Notes under the pieces: generated by a model
The model's input: the letters and a program-made list of their open reading frames with translations, nothing else
The model's database searches: none
What the model was told of the DNA's origin: nothing
Part shown: positions 24,901 to 57,064 of the stretch, piece after piece
Layout: the number at the start of each line of letters is the position of its first letter
Numbering within the stretch: the first letter of the stretch is position 1
Source of the DNA: a virus
DNA: 64,000 nt
Direction: 5' to 3' (one strand)
Virus record (IMG/VR): IMGVR_UViG_3300027763_000036
Location: 49,522 to 113,521 of that record
Position numbers and translations under genes: made by a program

Positions 24901-26427
24901 GATGCAGACGGGAATATAATTCTTAGTAAAGAAATAGATCCAAAAACTGGTAAGCCATTTAATGAAAAACAATTTGAAAAAACTAAAAAGAAATACAAGT
25001 ATGATTTCTTAGTTCCTTTATATAGAGAATCTGTACAAGAAGAAATAGATAAGTTGTTTGGTAAAAAAGAAGGTAAACTTGCCCCGGGAGCTAAGAGAAC
25101 TTTATCACGTAGATATAGTTTATTTAGAAGTGCTTTAGAACAGATTACTGATGAGGAGAGTAAAGCAAACATAGATAAAATTAGAAGAGCTGAAAAACTT
25201 ATAAATGATGCTGTTGAGAAAGATGGAATAATTATACCAGATGATATTGCTAATCTACTTGCACAAAAGAAACAAGCACTAAGAGCTTATACGGGTAAAG
25301 AAGTTATTAAAAGTATAATTAAAAAATATAAAGAAGATTTATCTGACACAGAGAAAAAAGTAAAAGATCAAAAAGAAGCACTGGAAAAAATAACTAGTAA
25401 TATTTCATTTGATGATATAGATAAATCTAAACTTGAAGATGGTACTGATTTCATAGAAGAGCAATTAGCAAAAGATAAAGACTTTGCATTTTACTATAAA
25501 AAGCATGATGACTTTAAGGAAGAAGATTCTAAAGATGCTGCTGAAGTTCAAAAATTAACTATCTTAACAATGAAGGCATCTAGATTATTAACAGATCAAG
25601 ATATAGAAGATGACTTAATTGATGAGCTTACAATGGCTGATGCTTCTGAGTTAATACATGAAGGAGTTAAAAGAATTCAGTATTTAAAAACTGAAACTAC
25701 AGATAATAAAACTCTCAAGGAATTAAAAGATTATCAATCCAAAATTTCTTTGCTTACTAGAACAATAGGCCTTAATACAAATAATCTTAATATTTTAGAG
25801 ACTCTTGAAGCAGCAGAGTTTAATGCAGAACAAGGACTTATGGATCTAGCTTATGAGCAGATATCTAAAAAAATTCAGAATCTTGAGGATGAGTTAAATA
25901 GAAACTATACTAAACCAAGTCGTAGGACAGATATTAATAAAGAGCTTGTTAATTTTAATAAATTCAAAGAAGCACTAGCTCTTGCTTATGAGATACCAAT
26001 AGATATATTTGAAAATATAGTAGAAGAAGAGGAGGAAGTAATAGAAGATGAGTATGATAATGTAATTAAAGTAGGGGATACAGTTTATTCTAGAACTGGT
26101 ACTGATACAACACCATATACAGTAAAAGAAATTACTCCTAAAAATTATATTCTTAAAGATCCAAAAGGTAAAGAAATATCAGTTGAAATTAGTAAATTTG
26201 ATGAACAATACATAACAGAAAGTGAGATGAATGCTGGTGAAACTACACCTCCGGGATACAATCCTACAGAAGGTGAAAAATCTGTAATGCAAGAAAGCCA
26301 AATGTCAGTAGATGATTTCTTAAGAAAAGCTGAAGAAGATAAGGCTAAAGCTTACCAGGAAGGAGTTAGCAATACGCTTGCTCAAAATAGAGAGAACTTA
26401 TTAAATAAAACAAAAGACTGTCCATAA
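18931..26427 (+). CDS. Giant virion ejection protein with PD-(D/E)xK nuclease-like domain
   Basis: 2498 aa. Hydrophobic/Gly-rich segments and 'EGIQENLQE' in the N-terminal third; 'IAGEIDLILVDKDGIYVLDIKSG...YTLQTAGY' (about 24590-24760) is a RecB/Cas4-like nuclease motif set. Single Cys, penultimate residue. Confidence 0.7.
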   Translation: MAEQELFDPLDPLGPEYGRINQPIPDAKGLSAFEGDLIDMPKANIPTRNESFFPSIANIENLNRPNREIKHNLVKTNAVNPSIPKKPIDINQYNKSTSQYIQSFFQANQDKNNYAKIYSYNAGPDGNAFYKRYAAYGQKKFDEVGFSPLRDNEANFNANTTKWENFSTMMAHSFIPLFTRGFVSGPKSLGKMLTGDFTSGDLEDARAYEEAAAIGNSSKGGIFGFVNNTVMNFGYTAGIIGEAVAEEAAGALLAAPTGGSSLIATTANNLLKIPKLFKGLNSAKKGYDAVRKTLKLTESVSGARNFWNAARSSEFLKSSVQALNPLENTMHAFRGFKQADNLTDMAILSKTAGGFYRDVRKINMALSEARLEAGMVENHVYDKLYNEAYIANNNEVPNNKELAEIEKQAKDASYETLLENTALIYVSNGITFHNITGPKGGIRNFIKSTTDDIYDIASREGSKNFGKIGKVVYDRAAKKFAIEKNNLKTLAKGWLKNPVYKSVGNTVGYFKANFTEGIQENLQETIAEANERYFLDSYKSPTLQTMLYSRAAMRAINRDKLDYFSESWAEQNPFTAKGAETFASGFFMGTLAGPLNSAVPFLSSNWNRMFHKEQYQKWKEAQTTVAQNLVSQLNDMDLGTFMSEEMQNLGAQDLVGALRARENKKAGLDSEVESYISQVQKLKNTGTFGIFKEKLEGLKELTDEEFADAVNIDLEKVPKYRTRIDKSIARLDKIKGLYERVEKKFPNPISNIDDLDKNDPNYEEKKLLGNAWNLATRNMVFFNETYDDILERRAKIDAKFNSNPKFQKIDNKQRNLLFNPLVPEGQFSKDSGDMVEEIDILKKELALEKELGKNSNKIKGLEEKIKITTDYVEKFKNFDLFFNRSGYIEKYAEDIKKATGKDATSEEIMEYMDSDLGGSLDENNPTGQRIISELRDSYKNYLKTLGKQKGEDIFSEDLDLTFEALMDYYKLGHEKVNIAKYVELFNDSDAFLDIVRRNTDWMRVQNGRRVKYFEDLIRSEMDKVRANALLNSLADKGLYMSLEDMGNYMNNGIPPKEIFNNITKEIYRIGDPKYAEIYQEYFQKNDDLKSDLNPRKTGILDDAYQKQIDDFEAKKQEEIDKLEKKPTRRETGEVKGKDRNKTFSATEASNQLANNEYVELKINKDSEPIVLFKDAEGNIHMDDVDGELVDVRDIKDRFLEGKRYVVEMLPDPLEVERITNVYNAKIEGVFKAYAADKDSVDLEVPYEEVTQESNLNTPDLIDFRNSLYVAYQEEYVENLSAEQQEALLEDSDLDQETFEKWYSLPENKKYFDEYNNENRPAISEKETVLSVNGVTVDTKNRTLEQLFEIRNTLADKLTIANEDIELLDDETEKEEKKQAQKVIDALALDLKNLNVIIAARQFAKYPEEIKDSVRSIQKLFKAQDKVERVTLTEDDEVTGLKKGQKAYRVNGKIHRRMTQAMHDVIDQKYEYKGQEDVDTVFNQTIGKNGLNPASAKEFVDRLRILAEDDKKLPGTNKIFFDKLQDQLLVLPSRTVEQIKLENQKSEILTKADKEKDAAKKEALYEQAVEIQNKIDGVTAPVSTDAKADIERKSGESVKDFMERLFSNNYFTEVSGKQIFSLTQGRWGVIVNIDGVQVPFYQSTSGTDTKVKGQWYPFFGDQGNWVIKGNSDDSNIGYGFKAIQDVQSFLNNNIKETDAIALSGIISKEVLQNQSSLRMLDESKIKGNEKISLNKEATAERLASVAGYSLEEGRKTKSDSELFQLASKKIFAELASLGTAETVAKDNFDIATKKNGIKDITDVFFAEQSYQDGRDAGDFFDLAKDYLESGKKPEFNENIITREAYDNLIGVLDPIKSKIESGELYIVGRDLVVYDSDIDLGNDRRDRIAGEIDLILVDKDGIYVLDIKSGEASKFLNFNNLSSKQKIFSKRNEYTLQTAGYATMLERMIDRRVAGLAMLPIQRASNKETNQVIEVKKPINPDLYEEINYKRDADGNIILSKEIDPKTGKPFNEKQFEKTKKKYKYDFLVPLYRESVQEEIDKLFGKKEGKLAPGAKRTLSRRYSLFRSALEQITDEESKANIDKIRRAEKLINDAVEKDGIIIPDDIANLLAQKKQALRAYTGKEVIKSIIKKYKEDLSDTEKKVKDQKEALEKITSNISFDDIDKSKLEDGTDFIEEQLAKDKDFAFYYKKHDDFKEEDSKDAAEVQKLTILTMKASRLLTDQDIEDDLIDELTMADASELIHEGVKRIQYLKTETTDNKTLKELKDYQSKISLLTRTIGLNTNNLNILETLEAAEFNAEQGLMDLAYEQISKKIQNLEDELNRNYTKPSRRTDINKELVNFNKFKEALALAYEIPIDIFENIVEEEEEVIEDEYDNVIKVGDTVYSRTGTDTTPYTVKEITPKNYILKDPKGKEISVEISKFDEQYITESEMNAGETTPPGYNPTEGEKSVMQESQMSVDDFLRKAEEDKAKAYQEGVSNTLAQNRENLLNKTKDCP

Positions 26428-29400
26428 TGATAACATGTAGCATTAATAATATTGAAATTGTAAAGGCTTTATATGCAGATGTAAGTGGTGCTCTAAAGAA
26501 AGCTCAAGATTCTAAAAAAGACTTTGATCATAAGGACTATATGAAAAAGTTATTCAAAGATCTTTCTGAACAATCATCACCAGAAGTAGCTGCTAAATAT
26601 TTACAGTCTGTACCAAAAATAATCATTGATGCACAAAACAATTATTTTGAAGATCTTTTTGTTAATCTAAATGCTTTAAGTAAACTAAATCAAGATTTTA
26701 AAAATTCTGACACAGGTGTCACAGCTGTAATTAAAGAATTAGGTGATACTTCTAATCTTGGTGAAAAAAAAGATAATTTACAGAATAAAAAAAATAATTC
26801 GATTAATTTAAATCAAAATCCTGTAGCACCAAAACCAGTAGTAAGATTACCACAAAGATTTAGAACATTAACTCCTTTTGGTGGTACTTTACAATCTTAT
26901 ATTAAGATTGATCCAAATTTAAAAGAACAATCTATTACTCCTGAAAGTATAAATCAGGAGTTACTCTATATGATTAGAACCTTTGATAAGATTAAAGAAA
27001 TTCAAAATACTACTGATACACTTAATGGAGTTGTTTATGATGGAGTAAAACTTCACTTTAAGTCTATTACTCTTAGTGCATATGATAAGCCTGAAAATCA
27101 AAAATATTTAGATGCAGATACTAAAGCTTTAATTGCTAAATCAGCAAGTATAATTAATCAAGGTACAGCTCCAAAAGATGTTGTTCAAATAACTGAACTT
27201 CCTATACTTTTATTAAGTGATATAGATGGTAATGTTCTTTATTTTGATAATAATGGAAACATAACTACTGAAGATTCTGGTAAGCCAGTATATCAGTTTA
27301 TGAGAACTGTTAGAAAAGATGGAAATACTTTTTCTGTTACTAATAGATATAATACTGAAGACTTACTAATTACTCCTGAAGATTTTGCAGATGCAACATA
27401 TGATGAAGCTATAGATGGTCCAAAAGATAAATATTTAGTATCTGTAAAAGAAATGATGCAAAAAGAAATGTCAGACTTATATGACATTCAACAAAGAGTA
27501 ATTTCTGGACAAGAGATGATACTTCCTATTACAGGAATTAGTAATGGTATACCCGCAAATTTGTCTGCTACAAAAATAACTTTGAGCAACTTATTAAATT
27601 TGCCAACACTAAATGCAAATCCTATTGGTGTAATTAAAACAATTAGAACAATACCTATTGCACAAGATGGATTTAATACTGGTTCAGCTTTTATTCAGTT
27701 GAATGGTAATAAATTTTTTATTGAAAGACCTTTAATAACACAAGACTTAGCAGTTGAGATTGCTGATGTTTTAACTAATCCTAATATTTCTAATGCTGCA
27801 AAACAAGAATATACAGATCAGTTTTTAAAGGGATACTCCACAAATAATTCAAGTAAAAAATTTACCTTAATATATTCTAAAAATGGTAAATCAATTTACT
27901 TTAATATGTTTGAAAAGTTTTATCAAACAGATCCAAAAGATATAAAAGAAAAACTAGACTTACACTCCTCATATTTAAAAACATTAGATCAATCACAAAT
28001 TGATAAGTATAAGGAAACAATTATAAAGTATTTAACTAAAGAAGGGACTAAAGCTAATCAAGGAAGAATAAATATAATATTTCAAAATGCAGCTTTAGAG
28101 AGTGGTAAGTACACAAGGTTAAATGATGCTGGTACTGGATTTAATAGAAATGCTGATTATCATACTTTCCTTACAACTACAGATTCTGAAATTTCTTTAA
28201 CTAATGCTGATCCTGGATTCTATAATTATGTAGTTAATTTTACAACATTTGATACACCTGTTGGAGAGTTTATTAATGCTGAGAAGAATGAAAAAGATTC
28301 TAAGCTTATAGATGCTGAGTTAAATAGAGTAATTGGAAATGCATTATCAAACGAATATAAGGCTAAAGTTAAACAAGAAGATCCTACTCAACAAAGACCT
28401 TATGATAGTTTTTTAGTCACTAGATACTTAAGAGATCAGATATCTACTGTCTATAACAAATCACAGAGCAAAACTTTTGTGCAAGGTCTTATAGATGCAT
28501 TAAAGGGTCCGTTATATAGTTACTTGCATTTACGTGACGCACAAATAAAGATTCTTCAGGACAAATTAAATATAACTAATTTCCAAACTGTTACACCTGC
28601 ACCAACTGCTAAGCCTCCTGTTCAAGAGGAAATAGTAGATGTAATAGAAGTTCTAGGAGCAGAATCTCCACAAGACAATACTGTAGTTAATAGAATATTT
28701 AATGAAGATACTACAGAAGATGATAGTATATTTTTTGATAGAGCTGGTATTAAAAAAGAGTTTATTAATCCATTAAAAATTGTACAAGCTAAGATATGGT
28801 GGAATAGTAAAAAAATGGAGCCAATGAGAAAACTCATAGAGTTTGACCGTATGCTTAACATTGTAAACTCAGATAGTTATGCAAGATTTATTGTAGCTGG
28901 AGCTACTCTTGCTGACACAGGTACATTAGGTACTATATTAGTTAATAAAGAGAAAGGTACAGTATTTCAAAACCTTACAATTTATCATGAGGCATGGCAC
29001 GTATTCTCTCAGTTGTTCTTAACTAAAAAACAAAAGTCAGATTTATATAACGAGCTACTCAATTATACAGATGCTAAAGGAAATACTCCTTATGCAAAGA
29101 TGAGTCTTAGAGAATTAGAGGAGATGCTTGCAGAAGATTTCCGTAACTATGTTAAAACAGGTAAAGCAAAACAAGGTGCTCAAAAAAGAAATAGTTTATT
29201 CAGAAAAATAGTTGAGTTCTTAAAACAACTATTTGGTAAAGTATTAAAGAAATTTAAAAAACAAGAAATTGTAATTAATAGTCTTAACTCGCCAATGGCA
29301 GCAAGATTATTTAATGAATTATACATAGGAGAATTTAATAAGTATTCTCCTAGTATAACTAATCAAATGTTTACTAAGCTAGATAGAGGACCAAGACAAA

Positions 29401-32400
29401 TTGAATATCCATCACAAGATGCACTATCTCCTGGAGATGGTATGACAGTGGTATCTTCTATTGATAATTTCTTTGCTGAAGAAGTAGATAAATTATATCA
29501 ACAAAGAAAAGCTAAAGGAGAAGACAGAAAAGAAATTAGCTTATCTGTAATAAAGAGTCCTGCACAAAAAGAAGAGTTATATAAGAGAGCACGCAAAAGA
29601 TTTGAAACTGTTCTTGCTCAAGAGCAAGCTAAACTTAGAGCTGTAGAAGGCATAGCAGATTTCAATACCTTAGATACTTTAGAAGAGATTGAAAGCAATG
29701 CTTTTGCTATAATGAAAAATGAGGTATATGACAAAGAAGGAAAGTTGATCCCGGAGAAATCAGGAAAAGACAAATATTTCTTTTTAACATCTCAGGTTAC
29801 AAACTTTGATAATCTATCTGCTTCAACTAAAAAAGGAGAAAGAGTAAGGGGAGAAGACTATAAAGATACTATTAGAATTGTTGGTGATTTTTATAAGCAC
29901 AAAACAATTAAGAAAGATGGAAGAAGCATAGATATTGTTTTAGTAACAAGACCTCAAGATGCACAAACCCAATTTGATAACTATCTAAAAGGAAATGTAT
30001 GGGATGAATCATCTAAGAAATGGATTCAAGATGCAGGTGGTGCAAAAATCTTTACAAGAATTGAGAAAAAACCTATAGTAGATAAAGCTAAGATAGATCA
30101 AACTCAAGAAGAGATAAGAGATAATGTAAGAGTATTAGAAACTACTCTTAAAAACTGGGGTGATGAGAAGAGTGGTATTGTACAATACCATATGCAAAAT
30201 ACAGACTTTGATGTTGCTAAAAGAAGATATAGTGTTGATGGAGAATTACTTCCTGAGATAGAAGAATTAAAAGAAGATAGTAAAGGTGAGGTAAAAGATG
30301 AATCAGAAAAAGACCTAGAAAATGACGGAGGCTTAGGACAGGGTAATGAAGGTACTGGAGATGTATCTTTACAACAAACAATGAGCAAAGAAACTATATT
30401 TGTTTTAAAGACATTGTTTAAAGTAAACTCTGATGGTACTATTCCAACAGATAGATTTGGAATTAAACAAAGAGCGGATTTTAGTAAAACATTTGCTATA
30501 GTTGCAAAAACTATTGGTGGTATTCGTGATAGACAAAAGGCTTATGAAAAATTAAGATTAGAGTCTGAAAAGTTTCCAGAGCTAAAACAATTGTTTGAAA
30601 CTAAGTTTCCTAATCCAAATAAGTCAGGAGCTACTGTTAATACATTTGAATTTGACTTAGCTAGAAACTTTTTCCAAGATTTTGGTAAACCACATATTGA
30701 TTATTTACAACTCTATGGTTACTATGATAAAGAAGTTGTAAATGATGCAGAAAGATATAACCTAAACTTTGTAGTAAAAGAATCTGACTTAGCAATAGAT
30801 AACTTACTAAATAAATGGTCAAACAACTTTGCAACTCTTAAGGGAAATAAATATATCAATGTATCAAGAGATAATATAAGAAGTTTAAAGTTAGCTGACG
30901 TTGTAAAAGATTTTAAATCAAAATCAACTAGTGAATTAGATTTAGCTAAGCAAATTGAGTTTGCTAAAGTATTGGGTATTGAGCTTCAGAATAATGATAA
31001 TGTTAAATCTGAGCTTGAAAGATCTGCATACTATGGTTTACCGTACATATTCAAAATAGTAAATTCAATAAATAATATTGAGCAAGGGTCTGTTGAAAAA
31101 GCTTTATCTAAAGAAAAATCTAGACTTGTAAGTAACTTTAAAGAAAACCCACTTAAGGTTTTAACAGATGGTTTTAGTGGATCTTTAATAGGTGATAAGG
31201 GAACCGTAAAACAATTAACTCAGTTAAAAAGATTAGCAGAGTTACAAACTACATATGGTTATGATAGTTCAAGTACTGCTATAATTAGATCTAACCAAAA
31301 CGTTGGTTATAAGGAAGTTAACTGGAGTTCTGGTCATGCAAGAGCATATGCATTAAATGAAGTAGAGAATTTTAATCAGCTTTGGGAAGATCCAAGATAT
31401 AACTACATGTCACATCTTAATCCTGAGATAAACACTCATGTTAGACATTTAAAAATCATATCTTCTTTATTCCCTAATTTAGAAAAGAAAAGTGAAAATA
31501 CTTCAGTAAAATTCTTTGCACAAGATGGATTTGCCATTACAGATGAAAGAGGTGACAGTAGTGGTAATACAACTACTGAGTTAGATCCATTATCTAAATT
31601 TATATTTGAATTTCATTCATTTAGTTTAGCTGGTGTAGCTGAACTACCAAGAACATCTGAAAAGAAATTCTCATGGGGCTTTAAAGTAGACGGAGGTATA
31701 AACCATCCAGATGTTAATTTTGAATCTGCAAAAGATCCAAATCTATATATTGACATTGACATGTTCAAAACTGTAGCTGGAGAACAATACGCAAGAGCTG
31801 GGTTTTTATATGGATATATTCAAGGTGAGTTTGATAGAATTAAAAAGTTCAGAGGTCCAGAAAAAGAAAAGTATTTAAACTTTACTGGGTATAATGAGCC
31901 TGTAATTGAAGATGGTGAAAAAATGTTTTCCGGACAAACCTTTGTAGCATTCAAAGGGGTGTTAAGTGAAGGAACAAAAAAGAGGTTATACGCATTAGCA
32001 GATCAACAAGCAGACATAGAAATCTTAGACTATGTTAAAAATGTTGATAAAGAACTTGGTAAAATGATCAAGGATGATATAACAACATTCTTCAATGAAA
32101 AAACAAATGAGATTAAAGAACTTTACTTTAATAAAATTCCTTACATATCTAGATCATTACTTGAGAAGTTTGGTATAGATAAGGAGTCTCTTAAAGATGA
32201 AGAAGTATTTAAATCTTATTTAGCAAAACCAGAGATCGTAAATGCTTTACTTAAAGCTTATACATATAATGACTTTATCCATAAATATGAGACAAGCATT
32301 ATTATGTTTGGAGATCATGCTCAATGGAATCACGGAAAAGAGGATTGGTCAAAAAGAATTCCTGGACTTACTTCAGATGGTATTGGTTTTATGTTTGATA

Positions 32401-35400
32401 ATCAAACTCAAAACTTTATAAATGATGTATTCAATAAAGAAACATATGCTTCTAAATTAACTGAGAAAGAAGGTAATAAAATAAACTATAATACTTTTCA
32501 GTTTAGTGAAAAAATGAATGCAGCAGTTATAAAAGATGCTGAAAGAAGTTCTATATATGTTGATGATTATGAAAAAATGTGGGAGAAAGACTATCTAAAA
32601 AGATTTAGTCCAGAAGTTGCAAAAGAAAAAGCAGCAGCAGATGCTAAGCCCTACAGAGAAATGAAAGAGTCAGATGGTATTGCATTTGTCACATTAGATG
32701 CATACCGAACACTTAAGAAAGTAGGAAGAGGTTGGAGTTTGGGTGAAGATGCACTTTATAAGAAAATTATAAATGGTGAAGAAATATCAAGTAAAGATGT
32801 AAAAGAGTTCTATTCTATTTTCAAGTTACATTATTTTGGAACAATAGAAAATGATTTATTACCTGTGACTGGTATGTTTAAGTTTTCGGTTATGCCAATT
32901 ATACCTGGAGTAAATGCAATTCCAGGTAATGAGCTTGATAAGCTTCACAAAAAAATGATGAGACAAAATACTCAGCTTGTTTTGTTTGCATCCGGTTCAA
33001 AAGGGTCACATATAACTTCAGATGGTAAAACAGATAATATTTATACTAATAAAGAAGATAAATATATTAATACTGAAGTAGATGAAAAAGGTAATGATGT
33101 ATTTCAGTTTACTAAAAATCCATTCTACTTAGCTAACTTTAAAGAGGTTACTGTAATGAATAACTCTTTTAAAGAACATCTTCCAATAGCTACACAAACA
33201 AGAGCTATTACAATAGATAATTTATTTGAAGATGGAGATTTAAAAAATCCAGACAATAAACCTTTTGTAGATGAGTACACAAATACAATCCGTGAATACT
33301 CTAAAGTATTAAAAGAAGATTTATTAAATGGATTAGGAATTGAGCTTATAGATGGTAGAGTAATTGGTGACTTTACAAGGTTTGTTGAGATTATTAGGGA
33401 TGAGATGTCTCAAAGAGATACCCCACCACATTTAATTAAACTAGTAAATACCAATCTTAAGGGACAAATTGCAATGGATTTATCATTGCATCCTGAATCA
33501 GATAGTATTGAAAAATTACTTGTTAGTTTAATTCAAAGAGGAGTTATTAAACAACAAACTAAAGGTGAGCCATTAGTTCAATCTCCAGCAACATTTACAA
33601 ATGGTATTTGGGATACACCATATTTAGATCTTACAGAATTAAAAGAAATACAAAAGTATTTAGGAACTAATACTCTTCCTTTCTATTTAGCAAATGGAGA
33701 AACTAGAACTGAAGAAATGAAAGTTGCTATTGCCTTACAAGGAGACTTTAGAAACTTACTTAATGCTAATGATCTAGAAGGAAATAAGATTGAGACTATT
33801 GAAAGATTAAATCAGTTGATAAAGAATCCTAAGTGGTTTGCAAAAAATAAAAAGTCATTAACATTGTTCGGGCCTAGAATCCCTAATGATGCACATAACA
33901 CTATTGAGGCAGCTACCGTTTGGCATTTCTTACCAGAGTCATTTGGTAATACTATTATTACACCAACTGAGATTGTAGCAAAAGCAGGTTCTGACTTTGA
34001 TGGGGATAAGTTATTTATGTCCATGCCTAATATAGACAGTGAAGGAAACTTTATTAATAAAGGAGTAGAAAACTTTGACAAAGTTTTAGAAGAGACTAAA
34101 GAACTTGAGAAGAAAAAGAAACTTCCTAAAGATAGACCTACTTCTAAACAGATAATTGAACTACAGAAAAAGTATTTACAGAACAGATACTTACAAGCAT
34201 CTGTAGAAATATTAATGCTTCCTGAAAATGCTATAACATTAACTAAGCCTAATGGTACATATCTAGTAGATAGATATGAGGAAAATGTAACAGAATTTAG
34301 AACAGGATATGATAAGTTTAAAAATGTTGGTGGAAGACCATCTGATGTAAACACAAAAGGTGTAAAGATTCCAAATACGTCAAACCATTTTACAGCAGGA
34401 TATAACCTTTATGTACATGATGCAAACTTATCACTTGAACCATCACTAGGTATTTTAGCAAAACTTACCAAGTCTATTCCTATGTATAAAGCTGCTGGTG
34501 CAAAAATGCCAGCAACATATAATGCAGGTATCACACTAAAGGTTCCATTAGATGTTAGATTTAATAAGAATATTACAGTAAATTCTAAAGGTGAAACTGT
34601 TATATCTATTGGTGCTGAAAATAATGTGGCTGGTGAAAATATTTCTGACACAACTTCTCACTCATTACAAGGGGTATTGGATAGAGCTAAAGCTACATTC
34701 CCATTTGAATTAAAGTTGGTTCCAGAAGCAATGGATGTTTATGGTTATCTAACAAGAGCAGGGGTAGATCAAGAACAAATAGTTTACTTGCTTAATCAAC
34801 CACTAGTATCTCAGTATCTTGATTTACAAAAGATAAATGAGTCTTCTATAAACAATGCTTTGTTTGGAAAGCAGAAAAAATTTATGATTTCTCAAAATTT
34901 GTTTATTGAAAATCTTAAGAAGACTTTAACTGAAGATCAATTAAAAAGGCTGGTTCTTGAGATAAATAAAAATAAACTTGCCGCTATAATGAAATCATTA
35001 CCTGAAGACTTAGAACTTCAAGTAATTATTCCTCGTAAAGAGGGTGTTTATACTGTGGCTGCTTTAAGAAATCAATTAAATGCTTTTGTAAAAACTGGTG
35101 AAGGAATAAATCCTAATTCTATTTCATCTATTTTGATAGAGTTACCGGATGAAACAAAAAAAGAAATTTATAGTTATGTTGTTCCTACTTTTGATAAAGC
35201 TGGATATTTATTGAGCCAAGGAAATGCATATTTCTTAATTGATTATATTGCAAAAAACAAACTTGCTAATAAAGATGAAATTCAAACATCTGATTTGGTA
35301 GATATAATGAAGAAACAAGATTCATCTAGCTTAAAAGCACTGATGATCTTTGCACATTATGTTGAATTAGAGAGACAGTATTCAAGAATGAATGATCTTG

Positions 35401-38400
35401 AAAAATCATTTACTCCGGATACTGCAAAAGTTTCTACTACTCAAGAAGCAATAATTAGAAAGAAAAAATATAAAACTTTCTTTAGTGCAATACAAACTAA
35501 TGTTCCAGAATATTTAAAACAATCAGAAGAAATAGATCAAGATTTCTTAAATAAGTTAATGAATGAATCTGTTGTATCTTCATTAATATTTGATGATTTA
35601 ACAATTGATTTATTAAAACCATTATTTCAAACTAAACTTGATGATGTCATTGTTAATTATATAGATGATGCATTAAAAGAAAATAGAGGAGAAATTTCTA
35701 ATGCTTTTGGTGTGGGTGCTGATGGAAGAGCTGAGTTCATAAGACAGTATGGAAATACTTTAGTAAACTTTATATATCAAAACTATTTATCATATTCTTC
35801 TGATGCAACTGGTAAGTTAGCAAATTATCCAGAAGCAATCAATGGTAAAGAAGTAGTGGTAGATAATACTATGGATGTTCTTGTAAAAATTGAAGAAGAT
35901 AAAATTCTTATAAACACTAGAATTATTGAATTTGATTTTGCAAATAAATCTTTCTTGGAAAATAATGATACTGAAGCAGCTTATGTAAACAGAAATTATG
36001 ATACTTTTAAAGTAGGTCAAGATCCATTTAAAAATCTAAGATCTTTCTATAGATATCATATTGAGTTAGCTCTATTAGAAGAAAATAATTCAATAGACAC
36101 ATTAGCAGATAGTGAATATTATTATTTTGGACAAATGGTTGCAAAAAATGATGGTAATATAGAACGAGCATATATTCAGTATATATCTGAAAGAGCACTA
36201 TCAAATAGTTATAACCCATATTATATCATGGGTAGAACTAAATATAGTTATACCAACAACGTATTAGAGTTAATTGATTCATTGGAAAATTACCCAGCAC
36301 TATTTGATAGATTCCCAATCCTTACTCAAATTTCTCCACAAAGAAACAGAGAAGGATTTAGAATAATTAGATTGAATAATAGATCAGATGTAAAAGGAGC
36401 ACTAGCTCAAGACTACTACAATCAGATTAGACAGCTTGGAGATATCTCTATCCAAAAATTAGATAACCCAAGTAACAATCCTGTAATTACATCTAAGGAT
36501 AAAAGAATAAGTGAGATATTTAATTTATTCTCAATCATGATGTACTATCAGCATGGTGTAGGTAAATCAGGAACAAGCTTTAATAGTGCTTTAGATTCAT
36601 CTCAATTTAAAGATATTATCATGCCTTCTACACAGGCGTTTATGGGTAATTACATTAATCCAAGTAAAACTTCTAGAGAAGAAATACAATCATTATTAAA
36701 TGCTGTATATCAACAAACTGTTTCTAGACAGAGGTTTAAAATAATGTTAGGTACTAAGAATGAATATGCAAATGCAGACATAGAAGCTATAGCAAATGAA
36801 CTTGATAAAAAAAGAACAGAAGGAGAAATAGAAGAGTTTGATGAGGATGAAGGTTCACAAAAGATTCCTTCAGAATTTAAAAAAGGTGAGAAACTTATTT
36901 TAGATGAAGATGTTAAAGCATTTAAAAGATATTTGATATCATCTAATGGAGTTAAGCCTTCTAAGTTTACAACTGTACAAACTAAGTTTTCAGAGTTCTA
37001 TAATGGTAGACAACAGGGTATGCCAAATACTGCTGCCTGGATGCTTAATAGCTCTAATCTATATGACATGGTAGAAATAAGTCAAGACTCTGACTTATTA
37101 GGTATTGTATACTATGAAAATGTAGATCTAGAAACAGGATACCAAATGATTAAAAAGGGTGAGGGTCCTACTCAACCTACTGGAGTTAAAGAAGTTATTA
37201 AAAATGAAAAAGGACTGATTATAATTAATAATGCAATTCCTTTACAAAAAACTCAACAAATAGTAAATGATAGTAAAAAATTTATAGAAGAAACTTCTTT
37301 TAAACAAACAGGTGGTTCAGTATCTTGGGGTTATGGAATGCAATGGATAAGATCAGCCGGATTAACAGCAAAACAAAAAGAAGGTGTTGTAATTGGTAAA
37401 CAGATAGGTGGTCAAGAAGTAACTCAAGAAATGGTAAATGATCTTATTGCTGGAGTTGACCCTAAAAAAATAAAAGGTTTACCATTATATGTATATACTA
37501 TTTATGACAAAAATGGTAATAGGTTACCTAATATACCAAGTGACATAATACTAACATTGCAAGAACAAGGAATTGATTTATCTCAATATGATGCTAGTTA
37601 TAATTCTGTATATGATAAGAATGACAAAGGTAGTTTAATTGTACATCAAGATAATACTGAGTTTAATACTTCACCAATTATTACTGTTTCTTTGGGTAGA
37701 CCAATGAAATTTATTACATATCAATTAAAAGATTCTAATAATTATAGTTTTGGTACTAATTCTAAAAATAAATATGAATTAACCTTAAATACTATTTCTA
37801 ATAAACTTGTATCTCAAAAGCTTGCTCCTGAATTAAAAAGACAAAAAAATTTTAGAGGTGATGAAGTTATAGCATATGGTGAATTAACTCCTGGAAATTT
37901 AGCTAAATATGCTAAAATGGTAGGAATGGAATCTGAAGCATTAGATGTTTTAGCAAATTCAATAGAAAAAATTGAAGAACATATGTTAACAAATGGTGCA
38001 GTTTTAGTTTTTTCTAATGAAAATAGAAATGTGTTTCATGAGATTATTTTTGATGAGGAAACAGATAAATTACCAATGCCTCAAGGTTTTCCTGATTTAA
38101 CAATAAATAAATCTTATACAGGGATGGGCAGACCAGATAAAATGGTTAATACAAGAGATTATAGGGTTGTATTAACTTTAAGAAAAGTAACTGGTGCTAC
38201 TGTTAATAATATTGATATACAAAAACTTACATCTACTCAACCTACTAAAACACTTACTACTCAAGATTCTGAAAACATATACTCTCAATTAGGCACTTTA
38301 ACTTCAAATATTGTCATATCCAATATAAAAACTAAAGATGGTAAGTATGATAGGACCGCTAATATAAAAGAAGCAAAAGTTAAAGGTAGAGTGTACACTA

Positions 38401-39743
38401 TGGAAGTAGATAGTGATGTAAAAAGCTTCTCAAATCCTTGGGCTAGTTTTAATAGAAAAGGAACAATTAAAACAAATTCTACAAAAGAAGCTGTTTTAAA
38501 TTACATTGATTGGCTTACTACAGATAAATTTATAAATGTTAAACCAGAAAGAAGAGCTTTTATTTTAGATATTTTAAAATCTGGTAAATTAAAAGGAAGA
38601 CAACTTCAATATTATGCTGAATTAGGAGAGCCATCTCATGCTACAGCTTTAGATTATTTAATTAATAAATATAACTGGGGGCAACCTACGTCAACATCTA
38701 AAACACCAGTATTTGATTCTCTTCCTGGTAAATCTACTACACCTACTATGACTTATGCTGGTATAGGAAGTAGACAAACACCACAAGAAGCTCTTGATCT
38801 TATGCCTCAAATTGCTAAGTATCTTGATAATTTAGGTTATACATTAAGAAGTGGTGCAGCAGAGGGTGCAGACACAGCTTTTGAAAAAGGTGCAACAAAA
38901 AAAGAAATATTTAAAGGATTTGACAGAACAGGTCAAAGAGAAATAAATGTTGCTAATGAAATACATCCTGATCTTCAGGGTGCTATGAATGCATCTAAAT
39001 CTAAAAAAATAAAATCAAGATTAGCTGAAGGTGCAACACAAGAAGAAGCTGAAAAATCAGGTGAAAGATCTGCATGGGCTGTTCAAAACTTAATGGCAAG
39101 AAATACTAATCAAATATTTGGTGTTAATTTAGATACACCGGTAGATTTTGTATTGTTCTGGGCACAAGAAATTCCTGGTTCAATTAGACCAAAAGGTGGT
39201 ACAGGACAAGCTGTAGAAATGGCTAGAAGAAAAGGTATACCTACTATTAATTTAGCAGATAAAAATTGGAGAGAACAACTTAAAGCTGTACTTTCTAATA
39301 AACCATCTACTCAACCTACTGAAGTTAAACCAGGTGGAGAACAATCTTCTATCAATGATGACATGGCTGAGTACACTAAACTTGTTGAACAAAACAACGG
39401 AGCTCAACCAAAAACATTTACTGTAGGTACAAGAACTTGGACTCTTAATAAATTTGGTAACTATGACTGGTCTGACCCAACAACTGGGCAAATCTACATG
39501 AGAAACATTAACATGGAGACTGGAGTAGCTGTACCTGAACCATTAATGAATGAGCCTGTAGATCCGGCATTAGTAGAAGAAAGCTTAAACTTTATAAATA
39601 GTAATAGAAAATTATTAGCTTTGGATCATAAACTTGCTGATATGGGTATTGATATAAATGATTTCCTTAAGCAAGTAGAGCAAATAAAAACAATGGAAGA
39701 TTATTTCAAAGCTAAAAAAACAATAGATAAGTTATGTCAATAG
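26427..39743 (+). CDS. Giant virion-packaged single-chain (two-barrel) RNA polymerase polyprotein with zincin and C-terminal accessory domains
   Basis: 4438 aa. HEAWH...EEMLAEDF zincin (28986-29000); 'GPRIPND' and 'AGSDFDGDKLF' (DFDGD at 33993-34007) as in crAss-like/phi14:2 vRNAP. C-terminal AlkB-like, DUF4326-like and SLOG-like domains. Confidence 0.88.
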   Translation: MITCSINNIEIVKALYADVSGALKKAQDSKKDFDHKDYMKKLFKDLSEQSSPEVAAKYLQSVPKIIIDAQNNYFEDLFVNLNALSKLNQDFKNSDTGVTAVIKELGDTSNLGEKKDNLQNKKNNSINLNQNPVAPKPVVRLPQRFRTLTPFGGTLQSYIKIDPNLKEQSITPESINQELLYMIRTFDKIKEIQNTTDTLNGVVYDGVKLHFKSITLSAYDKPENQKYLDADTKALIAKSASIINQGTAPKDVVQITELPILLLSDIDGNVLYFDNNGNITTEDSGKPVYQFMRTVRKDGNTFSVTNRYNTEDLLITPEDFADATYDEAIDGPKDKYLVSVKEMMQKEMSDLYDIQQRVISGQEMILPITGISNGIPANLSATKITLSNLLNLPTLNANPIGVIKTIRTIPIAQDGFNTGSAFIQLNGNKFFIERPLITQDLAVEIADVLTNPNISNAAKQEYTDQFLKGYSTNNSSKKFTLIYSKNGKSIYFNMFEKFYQTDPKDIKEKLDLHSSYLKTLDQSQIDKYKETIIKYLTKEGTKANQGRINIIFQNAALESGKYTRLNDAGTGFNRNADYHTFLTTTDSEISLTNADPGFYNYVVNFTTFDTPVGEFINAEKNEKDSKLIDAELNRVIGNALSNEYKAKVKQEDPTQQRPYDSFLVTRYLRDQISTVYNKSQSKTFVQGLIDALKGPLYSYLHLRDAQIKILQDKLNITNFQTVTPAPTAKPPVQEEIVDVIEVLGAESPQDNTVVNRIFNEDTTEDDSIFFDRAGIKKEFINPLKIVQAKIWWNSKKMEPMRKLIEFDRMLNIVNSDSYARFIVAGATLADTGTLGTILVNKEKGTVFQNLTIYHEAWHVFSQLFLTKKQKSDLYNELLNYTDAKGNTPYAKMSLRELEEMLAEDFRNYVKTGKAKQGAQKRNSLFRKIVEFLKQLFGKVLKKFKKQEIVINSLNSPMAARLFNELYIGEFNKYSPSITNQMFTKLDRGPRQIEYPSQDALSPGDGMTVVSSIDNFFAEEVDKLYQQRKAKGEDRKEISLSVIKSPAQKEELYKRARKRFETVLAQEQAKLRAVEGIADFNTLDTLEEIESNAFAIMKNEVYDKEGKLIPEKSGKDKYFFLTSQVTNFDNLSASTKKGERVRGEDYKDTIRIVGDFYKHKTIKKDGRSIDIVLVTRPQDAQTQFDNYLKGNVWDESSKKWIQDAGGAKIFTRIEKKPIVDKAKIDQTQEEIRDNVRVLETTLKNWGDEKSGIVQYHMQNTDFDVAKRRYSVDGELLPEIEELKEDSKGEVKDESEKDLENDGGLGQGNEGTGDVSLQQTMSKETIFVLKTLFKVNSDGTIPTDRFGIKQRADFSKTFAIVAKTIGGIRDRQKAYEKLRLESEKFPELKQLFETKFPNPNKSGATVNTFEFDLARNFFQDFGKPHIDYLQLYGYYDKEVVNDAERYNLNFVVKESDLAIDNLLNKWSNNFATLKGNKYINVSRDNIRSLKLADVVKDFKSKSTSELDLAKQIEFAKVLGIELQNNDNVKSELERSAYYGLPYIFKIVNSINNIEQGSVEKALSKEKSRLVSNFKENPLKVLTDGFSGSLIGDKGTVKQLTQLKRLAELQTTYGYDSSSTAIIRSNQNVGYKEVNWSSGHARAYALNEVENFNQLWEDPRYNYMSHLNPEINTHVRHLKIISSLFPNLEKKSENTSVKFFAQDGFAITDERGDSSGNTTTELDPLSKFIFEFHSFSLAGVAELPRTSEKKFSWGFKVDGGINHPDVNFESAKDPNLYIDIDMFKTVAGEQYARAGFLYGYIQGEFDRIKKFRGPEKEKYLNFTGYNEPVIEDGEKMFSGQTFVAFKGVLSEGTKKRLYALADQQADIEILDYVKNVDKELGKMIKDDITTFFNEKTNEIKELYFNKIPYISRSLLEKFGIDKESLKDEEVFKSYLAKPEIVNALLKAYTYNDFIHKYETSIIMFGDHAQWNHGKEDWSKRIPGLTSDGIGFMFDNQTQNFINDVFNKETYASKLTEKEGNKINYNTFQFSEKMNAAVIKDAERSSIYVDDYEKMWEKDYLKRFSPEVAKEKAAADAKPYREMKESDGIAFVTLDAYRTLKKVGRGWSLGEDALYKKIINGEEISSKDVKEFYSIFKLHYFGTIENDLLPVTGMFKFSVMPIIPGVNAIPGNELDKLHKKMMRQNTQLVLFASGSKGSHITSDGKTDNIYTNKEDKYINTEVDEKGNDVFQFTKNPFYLANFKEVTVMNNSFKEHLPIATQTRAITIDNLFEDGDLKNPDNKPFVDEYTNTIREYSKVLKEDLLNGLGIELIDGRVIGDFTRFVEIIRDEMSQRDTPPHLIKLVNTNLKGQIAMDLSLHPESDSIEKLLVSLIQRGVIKQQTKGEPLVQSPATFTNGIWDTPYLDLTELKEIQKYLGTNTLPFYLANGETRTEEMKVAIALQGDFRNLLNANDLEGNKIETIERLNQLIKNPKWFAKNKKSLTLFGPRIPNDAHNTIEAATVWHFLPESFGNTIITPTEIVAKAGSDFDGDKLFMSMPNIDSEGNFINKGVENFDKVLEETKELEKKKKLPKDRPTSKQIIELQKKYLQNRYLQASVEILMLPENAITLTKPNGTYLVDRYEENVTEFRTGYDKFKNVGGRPSDVNTKGVKIPNTSNHFTAGYNLYVHDANLSLEPSLGILAKLTKSIPMYKAAGAKMPATYNAGITLKVPLDVRFNKNITVNSKGETVISIGAENNVAGENISDTTSHSLQGVLDRAKATFPFELKLVPEAMDVYGYLTRAGVDQEQIVYLLNQPLVSQYLDLQKINESSINNALFGKQKKFMISQNLFIENLKKTLTEDQLKRLVLEINKNKLAAIMKSLPEDLELQVIIPRKEGVYTVAALRNQLNAFVKTGEGINPNSISSILIELPDETKKEIYSYVVPTFDKAGYLLSQGNAYFLIDYIAKNKLANKDEIQTSDLVDIMKKQDSSSLKALMIFAHYVELERQYSRMNDLEKSFTPDTAKVSTTQEAIIRKKKYKTFFSAIQTNVPEYLKQSEEIDQDFLNKLMNESVVSSLIFDDLTIDLLKPLFQTKLDDVIVNYIDDALKENRGEISNAFGVGADGRAEFIRQYGNTLVNFIYQNYLSYSSDATGKLANYPEAINGKEVVVDNTMDVLVKIEEDKILINTRIIEFDFANKSFLENNDTEAAYVNRNYDTFKVGQDPFKNLRSFYRYHIELALLEENNSIDTLADSEYYYFGQMVAKNDGNIERAYIQYISERALSNSYNPYYIMGRTKYSYTNNVLELIDSLENYPALFDRFPILTQISPQRNREGFRIIRLNNRSDVKGALAQDYYNQIRQLGDISIQKLDNPSNNPVITSKDKRISEIFNLFSIMMYYQHGVGKSGTSFNSALDSSQFKDIIMPSTQAFMGNYINPSKTSREEIQSLLNAVYQQTVSRQRFKIMLGTKNEYANADIEAIANELDKKRTEGEIEEFDEDEGSQKIPSEFKKGEKLILDEDVKAFKRYLISSNGVKPSKFTTVQTKFSEFYNGRQQGMPNTAAWMLNSSNLYDMVEISQDSDLLGIVYYENVDLETGYQMIKKGEGPTQPTGVKEVIKNEKGLIIINNAIPLQKTQQIVNDSKKFIEETSFKQTGGSVSWGYGMQWIRSAGLTAKQKEGVVIGKQIGGQEVTQEMVNDLIAGVDPKKIKGLPLYVYTIYDKNGNRLPNIPSDIILTLQEQGIDLSQYDASYNSVYDKNDKGSLIVHQDNTEFNTSPIITVSLGRPMKFITYQLKDSNNYSFGTNSKNKYELTLNTISNKLVSQKLAPELKRQKNFRGDEVIAYGELTPGNLAKYAKMVGMESEALDVLANSIEKIEEHMLTNGAVLVFSNENRNVFHEIIFDEETDKLPMPQGFPDLTINKSYTGMGRPDKMVNTRDYRVVLTLRKVTGATVNNIDIQKLTSTQPTKTLTTQDSENIYSQLGTLTSNIVISNIKTKDGKYDRTANIKEAKVKGRVYTMEVDSDVKSFSNPWASFNRKGTIKTNSTKEAVLNYIDWLTTDKFINVKPERRAFILDILKSGKLKGRQLQYYAELGEPSHATALDYLINKYNWGQPTSTSKTPVFDSLPGKSTTPTMTYAGIGSRQTPQEALDLMPQIAKYLDNLGYTLRSGAAEGADTAFEKGATKKEIFKGFDRTGQREINVANEIHPDLQGAMNASKSKKIKSRLAEGATQEEAEKSGERSAWAVQNLMARNTNQIFGVNLDTPVDFVLFWAQEIPGSIRPKGGTGQAVEMARRKGIPTINLADKNWREQLKAVLSNKPSTQPTEVKPGGEQSSINDDMAEYTKLVEQNNGAQPKTFTVGTRTWTLNKFGNYDWSDPTTGQIYMRNINMETGVAVPEPLMNEPVDPALVEESLNFINSNRKLLALDHKLADMGIDINDFLKQVEQIKTMEDYFKAKKTIDKLCQ
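37168..39329 (+). repeat. Dispersed direct repeat CTACTCAACCTACT (encodes TQPT) at 37168-37181, 38233-38246, 39307-39320; degenerate CAACCTAC at 38682-38689
   Basis: Read directly. Copies 1 and 3 share 22/23 nt (CTACTCAACCTACTG[G/A]AGTTAAA); copies 2 and 3 share 17 nt exactly (CATCTACTCAACCTACT). Confidence 0.85.
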
Positions 39744-48337: not shown

Positions 48338-49357
48338 TTACAATTTTACATTACCCATAATTAAATCATATGGCAGTGTAAAGTCTTTGTTTTCATAATG
48401 ATACTTTGCCATATCCATTATGTCATCAAAGTCTTGTTGCCATATGGCCATTGTCTCTGCTGAGACTTGGAATGGATAAGCTTGGTTGTATTTGTCTATT
48501 ACTATAAAAGTAAAATACAACTTCCACTCTTCCAGATCAGGTAAGTCTTTTAGAAATTTATGAAACACAAGTTTCTCATATACCACGGCTTGTAACCAAT
48601 ACTTGTAATACTGCACAGAGTCCGGGAATTCTAAAAGAGATTTACCCGTTGTCTTAAGGTCATTAATAAAGACTGTCTTAGATTCTTTATCTATTACAAG
48701 ATTGTCTATAATTCCCTTAAAACCATAAGGTAGATAATTTACATCTATATTTACAAGCAACTCACTGTAAACTTCTAGATGAGTATCTTCCTCTGTCCTG
48801 TCAAGTTGTAGTAGCTGTCTAATTTCCGGATTGGATTTTAGAACAATAACACCTTCTCTACAGCCACTTAGAGTAGGTTCATCAACCACTAGCTTGTCTT
48901 GACTTTCTTTTAAGAACTGAAAGTAATTTTTGTTTTCTTCTGTGAGTATCTTATCAAGTCTCTGTTGGTCTGTCTTGAGTGTCTGATAAAGATTAGCTGT
49001 AAGTAGCTCTGTGAGTATATCTGCTGAATAGTCTTCCAAAGATAGTGTATTATTTTCTACTGACAAGTGTATCTTGAAAATATTATCAATAATTTTTTTC
49101 TGACTATCAGTTGGTTGTTTTCCCGGGAGGCTTGTAAAATAATCATCATACTTTTCCTCTTCAAATAAGAGACAGTGCAGAACCCTACCTGCTACCAGAT
49201 GGGGTCCCACAATGTCTTCTCTTTTCTTGAGCACATAATGATTATAGAATGCCACGGGAGAATAAAGAAGTTTACTCAGACTACTATAGCTGAAATAAAA
49301 CTTCTCTTTGTAAAACTTCTCTAGTTCCTCAGAACCAGTCAAGGTCATTTCCGCCAT
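48338..49357 (-). CDS. PD-(D/E)xK exonuclease (RecB/Cas4/ExoVIII-like)
   Basis: 'FSYSSLS', 'GRVLHCLL', 'FKGIIDNL', 'INDLKTT', 'YWLQAVVY'. Confidence 0.85.
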   Translation of the reverse strand: MAEMTLTGSEELEKFYKEKFYFSYSSLSKLLYSPVAFYNHYVLKKREDIVGPHLVAGRVLHCLLFEEEKYDDYFTSLPGKQPTDSQKKIIDNIFKIHLSVENNTLSLEDYSADILTELLTANLYQTLKTDQQRLDKILTEENKNYFQFLKESQDKLVVDEPTLSGCREGVIVLKSNPEIRQLLQLDRTEEDTHLEVYSELLVNIDVNYLPYGFKGIIDNLVIDKESKTVFINDLKTTGKSLLEFPDSVQYYKYWLQAVVYEKLVFHKFLKDLPDLEEWKLYFTFIVIDKYNQAYPFQVSAETMAIWQQDFDDIMDMAKYHYENKDFTLPYDLIMGNVKL

Positions 49358-56344: not shown

Positions 56345-57064
56345 TTATTTATACACTTTATTCCAGTAAGTCTTTAACTTACCATCTTTCATCTCAGAAA
56401 TTATTATTTCTTCATTTTGCAAGTGCTCTGGCCTTGCACCACAAGTCACTTCTTCATTAGTTTTAAAGCTAAGAATAGTTTCATTACCCTTTCTATACAT
56501 ATAACCAATTGCATCTGCGTTAGCACATATTAGAGATTTTATTTTACCCGTCAAATCTATGTTTGCAGACATAACCATCTCTCCTTTATCATCTACCTGC
56601 TTGTCTTTAATATGACCAGATAAAATAATATGGGGAGCTAAGGTATCAATAAAATCTAAAACTTGAAAGAATGCTTGCCTAACATATAAGTAACCCGCAC
56701 CATTAGGTAATGTAAGAATACTGTCTCCAGAATAATTCTTACCCATTGGCGTTTGTTTATATAAGTTAATTGCAAGTGGCATAACCATATCTTCCAAAGC
56801 TGTCACAGTATCAATAGTAATATATTGATATGGATAACCAGCTTCTTTGATTGCTTTGCCAACTTCTTTTAGCTCCTGAAGATTATTAGCTTTGACTTTC
56901 ATGGCTTCAACATAGTCTGCACCATTTTCTAAATCAATAATTAAATTATCATCAAGACCTGCAAATGCAGTTGTCTTACCTGTTTTAGGCTTTGAATACA
57001 CAATTAATCTTTTAGGATTAACCCTGTTAGCTTTTACTTTTTTAGTTGGAAGTACTATACCCAT
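56345..57064 (-). CDS. Sak4-like AAA_24 ATPase (ssDNA annealing/recombination)
   Basis: YSKPKTGKTT, 'IDLENG', 'IDTVT', 'ADAIGY'. Confidence 0.85.
   Translation of the reverse strand: MGIVLPTKKVKANRVNPKRLIVYSKPKTGKTTAFAGLDDNLIIDLENGADYVEAMKVKANNLQELKEVGKAIKEAGYPYQYITIDTVTALEDMVMPLAINLYKQTPMGKNYSGDSILTLPNGAGYLYVRQAFFQVLDFIDTLAPHIILSGHIKDKQVDDKGEMVMSANIDLTGKIKSLICANADAIGYMYRKGNETILSFKTNEEVTCGARPEHLQNEEIIISEMKDGKLKTYWNKVYK

Follow-up and report, generated by a model that had tools for sequence, protein, structure and literature searches.

The C-terminal tail of a giant crAss-type virion RNA polymerase (RNAP), encoded in the IMG/VR virus record IMGVR_UViG_3300027763_000036, is likely to consist of independently inherited cassettes that are exchanged in frame at codon-fixed linkers by short-homology recombination. 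The window analysed was a stretch of 64,000 nt, positions 49,522 to 113,521 of this 113,521-bp record (completeness 97%), and the coordinates below are those of the window unless a contig is named. The closest public-run matches of the phage were freshwater metagenomes. The polymerase ORF (open reading frame) encodes 4438 residues inside a block of giant co-directional ORFs, and the modules and joints make up the last ~860 of these residues. An earlier note, made from the letters of the same DNA, had read the tail as a module X, a repeat R, a 2-oxoglutarate (2OG)-Fe(II) dioxygenase, R, a DUF4326-like module, a degenerate repeat r, a SLOG module, R and a second module X', and had taken R for a recombination joint. 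The modules and joints were recovered in this order, the dioxygenase and SLOG module included, while the DUF4326 label is a lead only. All relatives compared were metagenome assemblies, cited here by locus (L007 and so on); IMG/VR gave 68 loci of the family. The public runs (X1 to X4) were compared as Logan contigs, not reads, and uncovered stretches of X2-X4 as well as very short X1 and X4 matches were left out. The giant ORF and the parts of its tail are as follows.

26427..39743, + strand: giant ORF with a zincin motif, a crAss-type virion RNAP body and the C-terminal cassette array, in a single open frame
36900..37166, + strand: module X (residues 3492-3580), the last conserved module before the variable array, ending VDLETG...GEGP, placed by homology edges
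37168..37190, + strand: joint R1, CTACTCAACCTACTGGAGTTAAA (PTQPTGVK); the block shared with L007 ends at 37185 and homology to L010 begins at 37187
37191..38229, + strand: cassette 1, AlkB-like 2OG-Fe(II) dioxygenase, Pfam PF13532 above cut-off
38230..38249, + strand: joint R2, CATCTACTCAACCTACTAAA (STQPTK); homology to L010 ends at 38245, within R2, and homology to L021 over cassette 2 begins at 38218
38250..38681, + strand: cassette 2, a module of 145 residues ending ALDYLINKYNW, DUF4326-like as an ESM Atlas lead only
38682..38689, + strand: degenerate joint r, CAACCTAC (QPT); an L007 block begins at 38683, homology to L021 ends at 38686, and an X4 contig jumps here
38690..39303, + strand: cassette 3, SLOG/DprA-like Rossmann module (GIGSR, SGAAEGAD, GGTGQ), PHROG 768
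39304..39329, + strand: joint R3, CATCTACTCAACCTACTGAAGTTAAA (PSTQPTEVK); the L007 block ends at 39316 and that of L083 at 39331, and homology to L008 and L003 begins at 39305
39330..39740, + strand: terminal module X', the fixed anchor at the C-terminus and by BLASTP a diverged copy of X (INMETG; last residues KLCQ)

The 14-mer CTACTCAACCTACT was found exactly at 37168, 38233 and 39307, where the earlier note had placed it. All three copies were in frame at module boundaries and encoded (P/S)TQPT, at residues 3582, 3937 and 4295. When up to two mismatches were permitted there were four matches, a count that 0/100 shuffles reached (shuffle mean 0.64). At no more than one mismatch, the whole 113,521-bp record contained these three copies only, and none on the other strand. 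The similarity between copies had been said to extend to 17-23 nt, and we measured 20 nt for R2 and R3 (95% identical) and 23 nt for R1 and R3 (96% identical). TQPT was absent from the remainder of the 20,549 residues of window ORFs, for which composition predicts about 0.12 occurrences. The window repeat is the short form of a wider linker, CT ACT CAA CC(T or A TCT) ACT .. GTT AAA. The degenerate copy at 38682, which reads CAACCTACG and encodes QPT, proved to be a genuine joint, with edges of L007, L021 and the X4 contig falling there. Another copy with two mismatches, at 38734 (TTPT), was not accepted as a joint; it lies within the conserved first strand of the SLOG module and had no breakpoint. 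The BLASTP endpoints of 119 relatives piled up at residues 3580-3590, 3930-3950, 4080-4100 and 4290-4310. These are the four linker positions, in agreement with the claim that R stands at each domain boundary.

Edges of nucleotide homology were found at the same joints. The closest complete tail, that of L007, had 96.5% DNA identity to the window up to 37185 (block 33427-37185). There, an unrelated 396 nt, encoding a module of 132 residues, replaced window positions 37186-38682 and with them cassettes 1 and 2. L007 matched again over 38683-39316 (96.8%), 483 nt (an extra module of ~160 residues) replaced 42 nt after R3, and the match resumed from 39359 onward. Three of the four block edges were within R1, r and R3. 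Homology of the window to L007 and to L002, L003, L008 and L024 stopped at 37182-37185, within R1, and the end of X was conserved across lineages. Each window cassette had a separate nearest relative, with edges in the joints:

37187-38245: nearest relative L009/L010, 83% nucleotide identity
38218-38686: nearest relative L021, 90% nucleotide identity
38691-39331: nearest relative L083, 91.5% nucleotide identity
39305 onward: nearest relative L008, 72% nucleotide identity

The body of L010 had only 43% protein identity to the window body, as against the 83% DNA identity of the dioxygenase cassette. Among five phage pairs, 8/15 breakpoints were at most 12 nt from CTACTCAACC, whereas the null had a mean of 0.56 and a maximum of 4, and 0/5000 random sets reached 8. 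The breakpoints thus coincided with the repeat, both in these pairs and at R1, r and R3 of L007, as the earlier note had required of a recombination joint. That note had also recommended looking for deletions or rearrangements between repeats. One was found, in a contig and not in reads: a contig of run X4 (1566 nt, 14 differences, 99% identical) covered 37156-38682 and then continued at 39301. It represents an in-frame loss of 618 nt (206 codons), exactly the SLOG cassette, bounded by r and the 5′ edge of R3. Several assemblies ended 15-60 nt upstream of R1, namely L001 (end at window 37153) and runs X2 and X3 (window 37108-37138). Strain-level heterogeneity of the sampled populations would break assemblies in this way.

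Module content varied widely in the family. A database search detected 276 giant relatives (2,400-6,800 residues) with very different Pfam sets, including AlkB, NADAR, PIF1/RecD-type helicase, ART-PolyVal, cpYpsA, HD, SprT and inteins. Across these proteins, one module end preceded many different modules, and the linker between them was of a Thr/Gln/Pro/Ser type, (K)PTQ(P/S)(S/T)T(S)V. The junction peptide (P/S)TQP(S)T..VK recurred at junctions among 120 relatives, with about 45 instances of TQPT where about 3 were expected. A greedy module map took in 32 of these 120, those with a recognisable X end. The 32 tails contained 32 module families in many orders, and a module of the X' type, either M004 or M024, was last in 32/32. 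TQ[PS] was present at 32/74 mapped junctions, which is a strict-pattern count and not a measure of linker prevalence. Identical domain content and order in relatives, against which the earlier note had set its proposal, were therefore found neither in the Pfam sets nor in the mapped tails.

Bodies that were 96-99.8% identical nevertheless carried different cassettes. The near-identical pairs L003/L008 (99.7%), L002/L003 (99.8%), L004/L020 (97.8%) and L006/L011 (97.6%) differed only in cassettes, and their Pfam content differed accordingly, for example none in one member and NADAR plus ART-PolyVal in the other. Outside the tail, L006 and L011 (97% identical) also differed by an insertion of ~360 nt (~120 residues) near residue 610 (L006:11816-11818 versus L011:10323-10685). 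Judging from this insertion, the giant protein may have a second variable site near its N-terminus.

The linker was shared as DNA by phages with divergent bodies. The 20-mer ACTCAAYCATCTACTAGTGT was present exactly in 63 IMG/VR contigs, at 81 sites, all of them in frame between differing modules and up to 5 per ORF. In 1.69 Mb, CTACTCAACC occurred 44 times in the forward and 2 times in the reverse orientation, and its synonymous variants were found 3 and 2 times. The body of L057 was 26-37% identical to those of a set of giant relatives, while three of its cassettes were 62-71% identical to cassettes of the window clade. These L057 cassettes were flanked by the same linker DNA and were situated in the giant ORF's N-terminal third, not in a C-terminal tail. 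The linker spacing there (L057:8424-9850) was 480, 480 and 447 nt. A case more extreme than the window was seen in L112:6565-8951, where one ORF contained the 20-nt linker ACTCAATCATCTACTAGTGT five times in exact form, always between different modules, including NADAR-like and DUF4326-like ends.

Codon fixation was counted at loci chosen by body homology, in unique contexts. TQPT was encoded as ACTCAACCTACT in 13/16 contexts (expected 0.094) and the longer linker form STSV as TCTACTAGTGTT in 13/15 (expected 0.022). The codon preceding the motif ended in T in 31/31 cases, though the residue varied (P/S/T/A). In the same genes, the body's catalytic motifs are invariant in protein but show free variation at synonymous sites. 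The repeat is thus conserved at synonymous positions, as had been noted, and codon bias in Thr/Gln/Pro linkers does not account for it. The DNA identity is either selected for exchangeability or a by-product of frequent exchange.

The linker could alternatively be kept for a reason at the protein level, as a flexible Thr/Gln/Pro spacer or as a site at which a zincin or prohead protease releases the cassettes, the DNA identity being a by-product of recent exchange. Breakpoints would then fall in linkers because breakpoints elsewhere destroy domains, and some do lie outside the motif. We consider this explanation unlikely. It fits the recurrence of the junction peptide in the 120 relatives, but selection on a peptide leaves synonymous sites free, as they are in the catalytic motifs, and the TQPT, STSV and preceding-T counts show that those of the linker are not. 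Cleavage would agree with the HExxH motif in the same polypeptide and with the view that crAss polyproteins are cleaved (bioRxiv 10.1101/2020.03.07.982082). However, the tolerated linker variants (TQPT, TQPS, TQSS, TEPT, GQPQ) are a poor fit to a strict protease site, and the virion RNAP of N4, another protein with a zincin-type domain, is packaged without processing (Iyer 2017, PMC5512222). A protein-level role is compatible with cassette exchange at the linkers, and the two may coexist.

As to mechanism, no tyrosine recombinase (PF00589) was detected in the genome (97% complete), although every control gave a match, and a search for inverted repeats or hairpins at R1, R2, r and R3 found none. 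The crossover points were scattered in the linker, after GGAG, CAACC, CAACCTAC and GTTAAACC. Together, these three results favour short-homology over site-specific recombination, and the latter probably does not operate at the linker. The most likely process would be short-homology recombination of an annealing or RecA type, possibly by the Sak4-like annealase and the exonuclease of the phage itself, which may act at the joints. These two genes are listed below together with an HNH endonuclease gene.

56345..57064, - strand: Sak4-like single-strand annealing protein, candidate recombination enzyme (PHROG 124, E 3.7e-29)
48338..49357, - strand: exonuclease VIII-like exonuclease, candidate partner of the annealase (PHROG 412, E 3.8e-17)
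51874-53052, - strand: HNH endonuclease gene, in the replication module with the exonuclease and annealase

Since all linkers are in one frame, any linker-to-linker crossover is in frame as well. Crossing-over between co-infecting relatives, or between linker copies within one genome, could replace, add, delete or move cassettes without breaking the 13-kb gene. Module X and the conserved anchor X' would supply longer homology for swapping whole arrays.

Recognition of the linker by a dedicated sequence-specific enzyme, either the phage HNH endonuclease or an unrecognised recombinase, in the manner of integrons or homing, is improbable. Such an enzyme would explain why an element of 14-23 nt is so extremely conserved across phages whose bodies are 26-37% identical, and the HNH gene and the palindrome ACTAGT of the long linker form also speak for it. 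The short form in the window lacks ACTAGT, however, and the scatter of crossovers points to no single fixed phosphodiester; the missing tyrosine recombinase and hairpins weigh on the same side. Chance, codon bias or assembly artefact, that is, ordinary Thr/Gln/Pro linkers in an AT-rich genome or chimeric contigs among comparison sequences that all come from metagenomes, is very hard to credit, because even with ACT, CAA and CCT common in the window (0.49, 0.76 and 0.43) the arithmetic from these frequencies gives p about 0.004 for one codon set in the three copies, the family-wide 13/16 far exceeds the expectation, different samples yielded the same architectures (L004=L017, L006=L013, L011=L022=L026, L002=L024, L009=L010, L014=L019), and one 19.7-kb Logan contig, possibly from the source sample, spans the window arrangement. 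A repeat of 14-23 nt is also shorter than the usual assembler word length and should not by itself cause chimeras.

Several observations weigh against the exchange of cassettes by crossing-over in the linkers. The L007 breakpoint at 39358 lies inside the start of X', outside the motif, and breakpoints off the motif were also found at L006 20580 and L004 23515. The two sides of the X4 joint have only 4 letters (AACC) in common in window coordinates, and this deletion was therefore not a simple crossover of two full R copies in a window-like genome. Selection for intact domains would also gather the surviving breakpoints at linkers, and a length of 14-23 nt is small for homologous recombination to be efficient. 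Conservation extends to the peptide, so a role as flexible linker or protease site may contribute, and the relatives are metagenome assemblies without exception. The proposal that R is an in-frame recombination joint is nevertheless supported: relatives differ in domain content, breakpoints coincide with the repeat, and the codon identity exceeds what codon bias gives. We infer that crossing-over in the linker DNA is the cause of the pattern and not a mere trace of it. A stronger version, which we put forward only tentatively and think rather doubtful, is that the linker (~14-27 nt) is a selected, dedicated recombination signal, a ‘coding-sequence integron’ used preferentially by the annealase and exonuclease of these phages. 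It would keep a pan-phage cassette pool open to in-frame exchange between crAss-type phages whose bodies otherwise diverge strongly, and would furnish an injected counter-defence arsenal that can be re-assorted rapidly, with the synonymous sites under second-order selection for exchangeability.

The cassettes differed in how well they could be classified. In cassette 1, 2OG-FeII_Oxy_2 (PF13532) matched residues 3696-3919 with 32.1-35.4 bits (cut-off 31.2). The HxD...H iron triad and the 2OG-binding Arg were present as HQD 3740-3742, H3871 and RxxxxxR 3913-3919 (RVVLTLR). This cassette was missing from L007. Cassette 2 had no Pfam match at E<=1, DUF4326 (PF14216) included, and its nearest ESM Atlas clusters, which carry DUF4326 (score 0.88, 199 shared features), are a lead only. 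It was present in 49 relatives, followed by many different modules, with nucleotide identities of 90% to L021 and 82-84% to L081, L094, L112, L127 and L134, and was missing from L007. Cassette 3 matched the DprA-like/SLOG family PHROG 768 at residues 4107-4292 (E 1.1e-44, 180/191 profile positions covered). Since Pfam DNA_processg_A reached 16.7-21.7 bits, below its cut-off of 29.6, it is not DprA proper. Its nucleotide identity was 96.8% to L007 and 91.5% to L083. Modules X and X' had no match in Pfam but were related to each other (BLASTP E 1e-5, 23% identity). In searches of the tail against GenBank, blastn yielded no match among phages, and tblastn only free-standing DprA-like/SLOG genes.

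Two motifs stand out in the body upstream of the tail.

28986..29000, + strand: HEAWH (HExxH), zincin-type metal motif, residues 854-858 (motif only)
33993..34007, + strand: DFDGD, catalytic motif of two-barrel RNAPs, residues 2523-2527 (invariant motif)

H854, E855 and H858 as well as D2523, D2525 and D2527 were invariant in both alignments (A1 and A2, of 20 and 12 relatives). The candidate zincin region at residues 854-858 had no match to a Pfam or PHROG model. The signature published for crAss-like virion RNAPs is DFDxD in a giant protein that is packaged in the virion, and in crAss-like phages a zincin protein adjoins the polymerase or is fused to it (bioRxiv 10.1101/2020.03.07.982082). 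Residues 1900-2800, compared with GenBank by tblastn, matched 76 records, all of them crAss-like, with E down to 7e-21 and 21-27% identity. The matches included Bacteroides crAss phages, CrAssphage and two Cellulophaga phage records (host C. baltica), and some were annotated as ‘putative RNAP catalytic subunit’. Sequence and profile searches of PDB with the polymerase body yielded nothing useful, including no match to gp66 of phage phi14:2.

The 4438-residue protein has only two cysteines, residue 4 (26436-26438) and the penultimate residue 4437 (39735-39737). Neither varied across the 20 and the 12 aligned relatives, and the C-terminus read ...KLC or ...KLCQ in many relatives. The next giant ORF (1183 residues) begins 10 nt upstream of the polymerase stop (window 39734-39743) and is 89% identical to L007 in nucleotides, unlike the cassettes directly upstream.

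The usual view of phage counter-defence is that it evolves as small accessory genes are acquired and lost. What is exchanged here are protein domains, within an essential gene of 13 kb, and each exchange point is marked by a short codon-fixed linker found in at least 63 viral contigs. If recombination is truly guided by the linker DNA, the linker would embody a simple rule from nature for shuffling domains in frame, one that protein engineers could copy. It would likewise be a tag by which the cargo domains of crAss-type phages, often without a known family, can be located in sequence. It would also explain why near-identical phages of one lake have different sets of enzymes (AlkB-like, NADAR, ADP-ribosyltransferase, SLOG). 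These domains are probably the first to meet host defences. Judged by the precedent of phi14:2 gp66 and by the polyvalent-protein concept, the array is probably carried into the cell together with the polymerase and would act early, on nucleic acids or host defences, in anti-defence or repair roles.

Among known systems, integrons resemble the tail in having an array of exchangeable units at a fixed platform, each bounded by a recurring site. The comparison drawn in the earlier note holds for this logic only. There is no integrase here and no attC-like hairpin, and the cassettes are domains in one frame instead of promoterless genes. The comparison with polymorphic toxins, also drawn in that note, is the closer one. 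As Poole et al. reportedly described in 2011, the CdiA-CT region follows a VENN motif and Rhs tips follow PxxxxDPxGL. In polymorphic toxins, a constant body precedes exchangeable C-terminal modules, and the junction motif is also conserved as DNA and provides homology for swapping. The tail likewise has a short conserved junction motif, (P/S)TQP(S)T, at its module boundaries. It differs in having several joints in series, forming combinatorial arrays, and in ending with X' as a fixed anchor. A cognate immunity gene is absent, as the downstream gene is conserved with L007 (89%), and neither orphan cassettes in the genome nor another copy of the joint in the 113,521-bp record were found. The cargo probably consists of counter-defence or repair enzymes, unlike the toxins of those systems.

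Linker sequences are also part of Botstein's modular theory of phage evolution. The ‘His boxes’ of T-even tail-fibre adhesins, at which Tetart et al. are said to have reported conserved-motif recombination in 1998, are similarly short conserved coding motifs that serve as in-frame crossover points between related phages. They exchange receptor-binding segments of one fold, whereas the linkers described here join unrelated enzymatic domains and are common to very divergent bodies.

The polymerase itself is most similar to the gp65-gp66-gp67 block of phi14:2 (Drobysheva et al., bioRxiv 10.1101/2020.03.07.982082; Yutin et al. 2021, PMC7886860), with which it shares DFDxD, giant size, co-directional giant ORFs and a candidate zincin-type partner, which some phages have as a fusion. 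By tblastn, its core matched crAss-like phages alone. It had no PDB-level sequence match to gp66 and comes from a phage of freshwater metagenomes. Packaging of gp66 in the virion and its translocation into the host have been demonstrated (bioRxiv 10.1101/2020.03.07.982082).

Polyvalent proteins (Iyer, Burroughs, Anand, de Souza, Aravind 2017, PMC5512222) contain 2-15 conflict-type domains per polypeptide, are encoded by phages or plasmids and were proposed to be delivered with the DNA. The giant ORF is alike in combining a putative zincin motif, a virion polymerase and many conflict-type domains (2OG dioxygenase, DUF4326-like, SLOG) in one polypeptide. The domain sets are mosaic in both, and the ART-PolyVal domain of that family occurs in relatives of the window phage. 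PMC5512222 does not mention linkers, AlkB, SLOG, DUF4326 or crAss phages, and brings up variability by recombination for just one kinase system, which has small ORFs next to it. Both polyvalent proteins and the virion RNAPs of crAss phages are already known, but the papers searched and read on them describe neither the linkers nor a variable tail of cassettes. Unlike in polyvalent proteins, the joints here are resolved to the nucleotide, fixed in their codons and placed in series within one ORF, and the polyvalent-protein idea becomes testable at defined joints.

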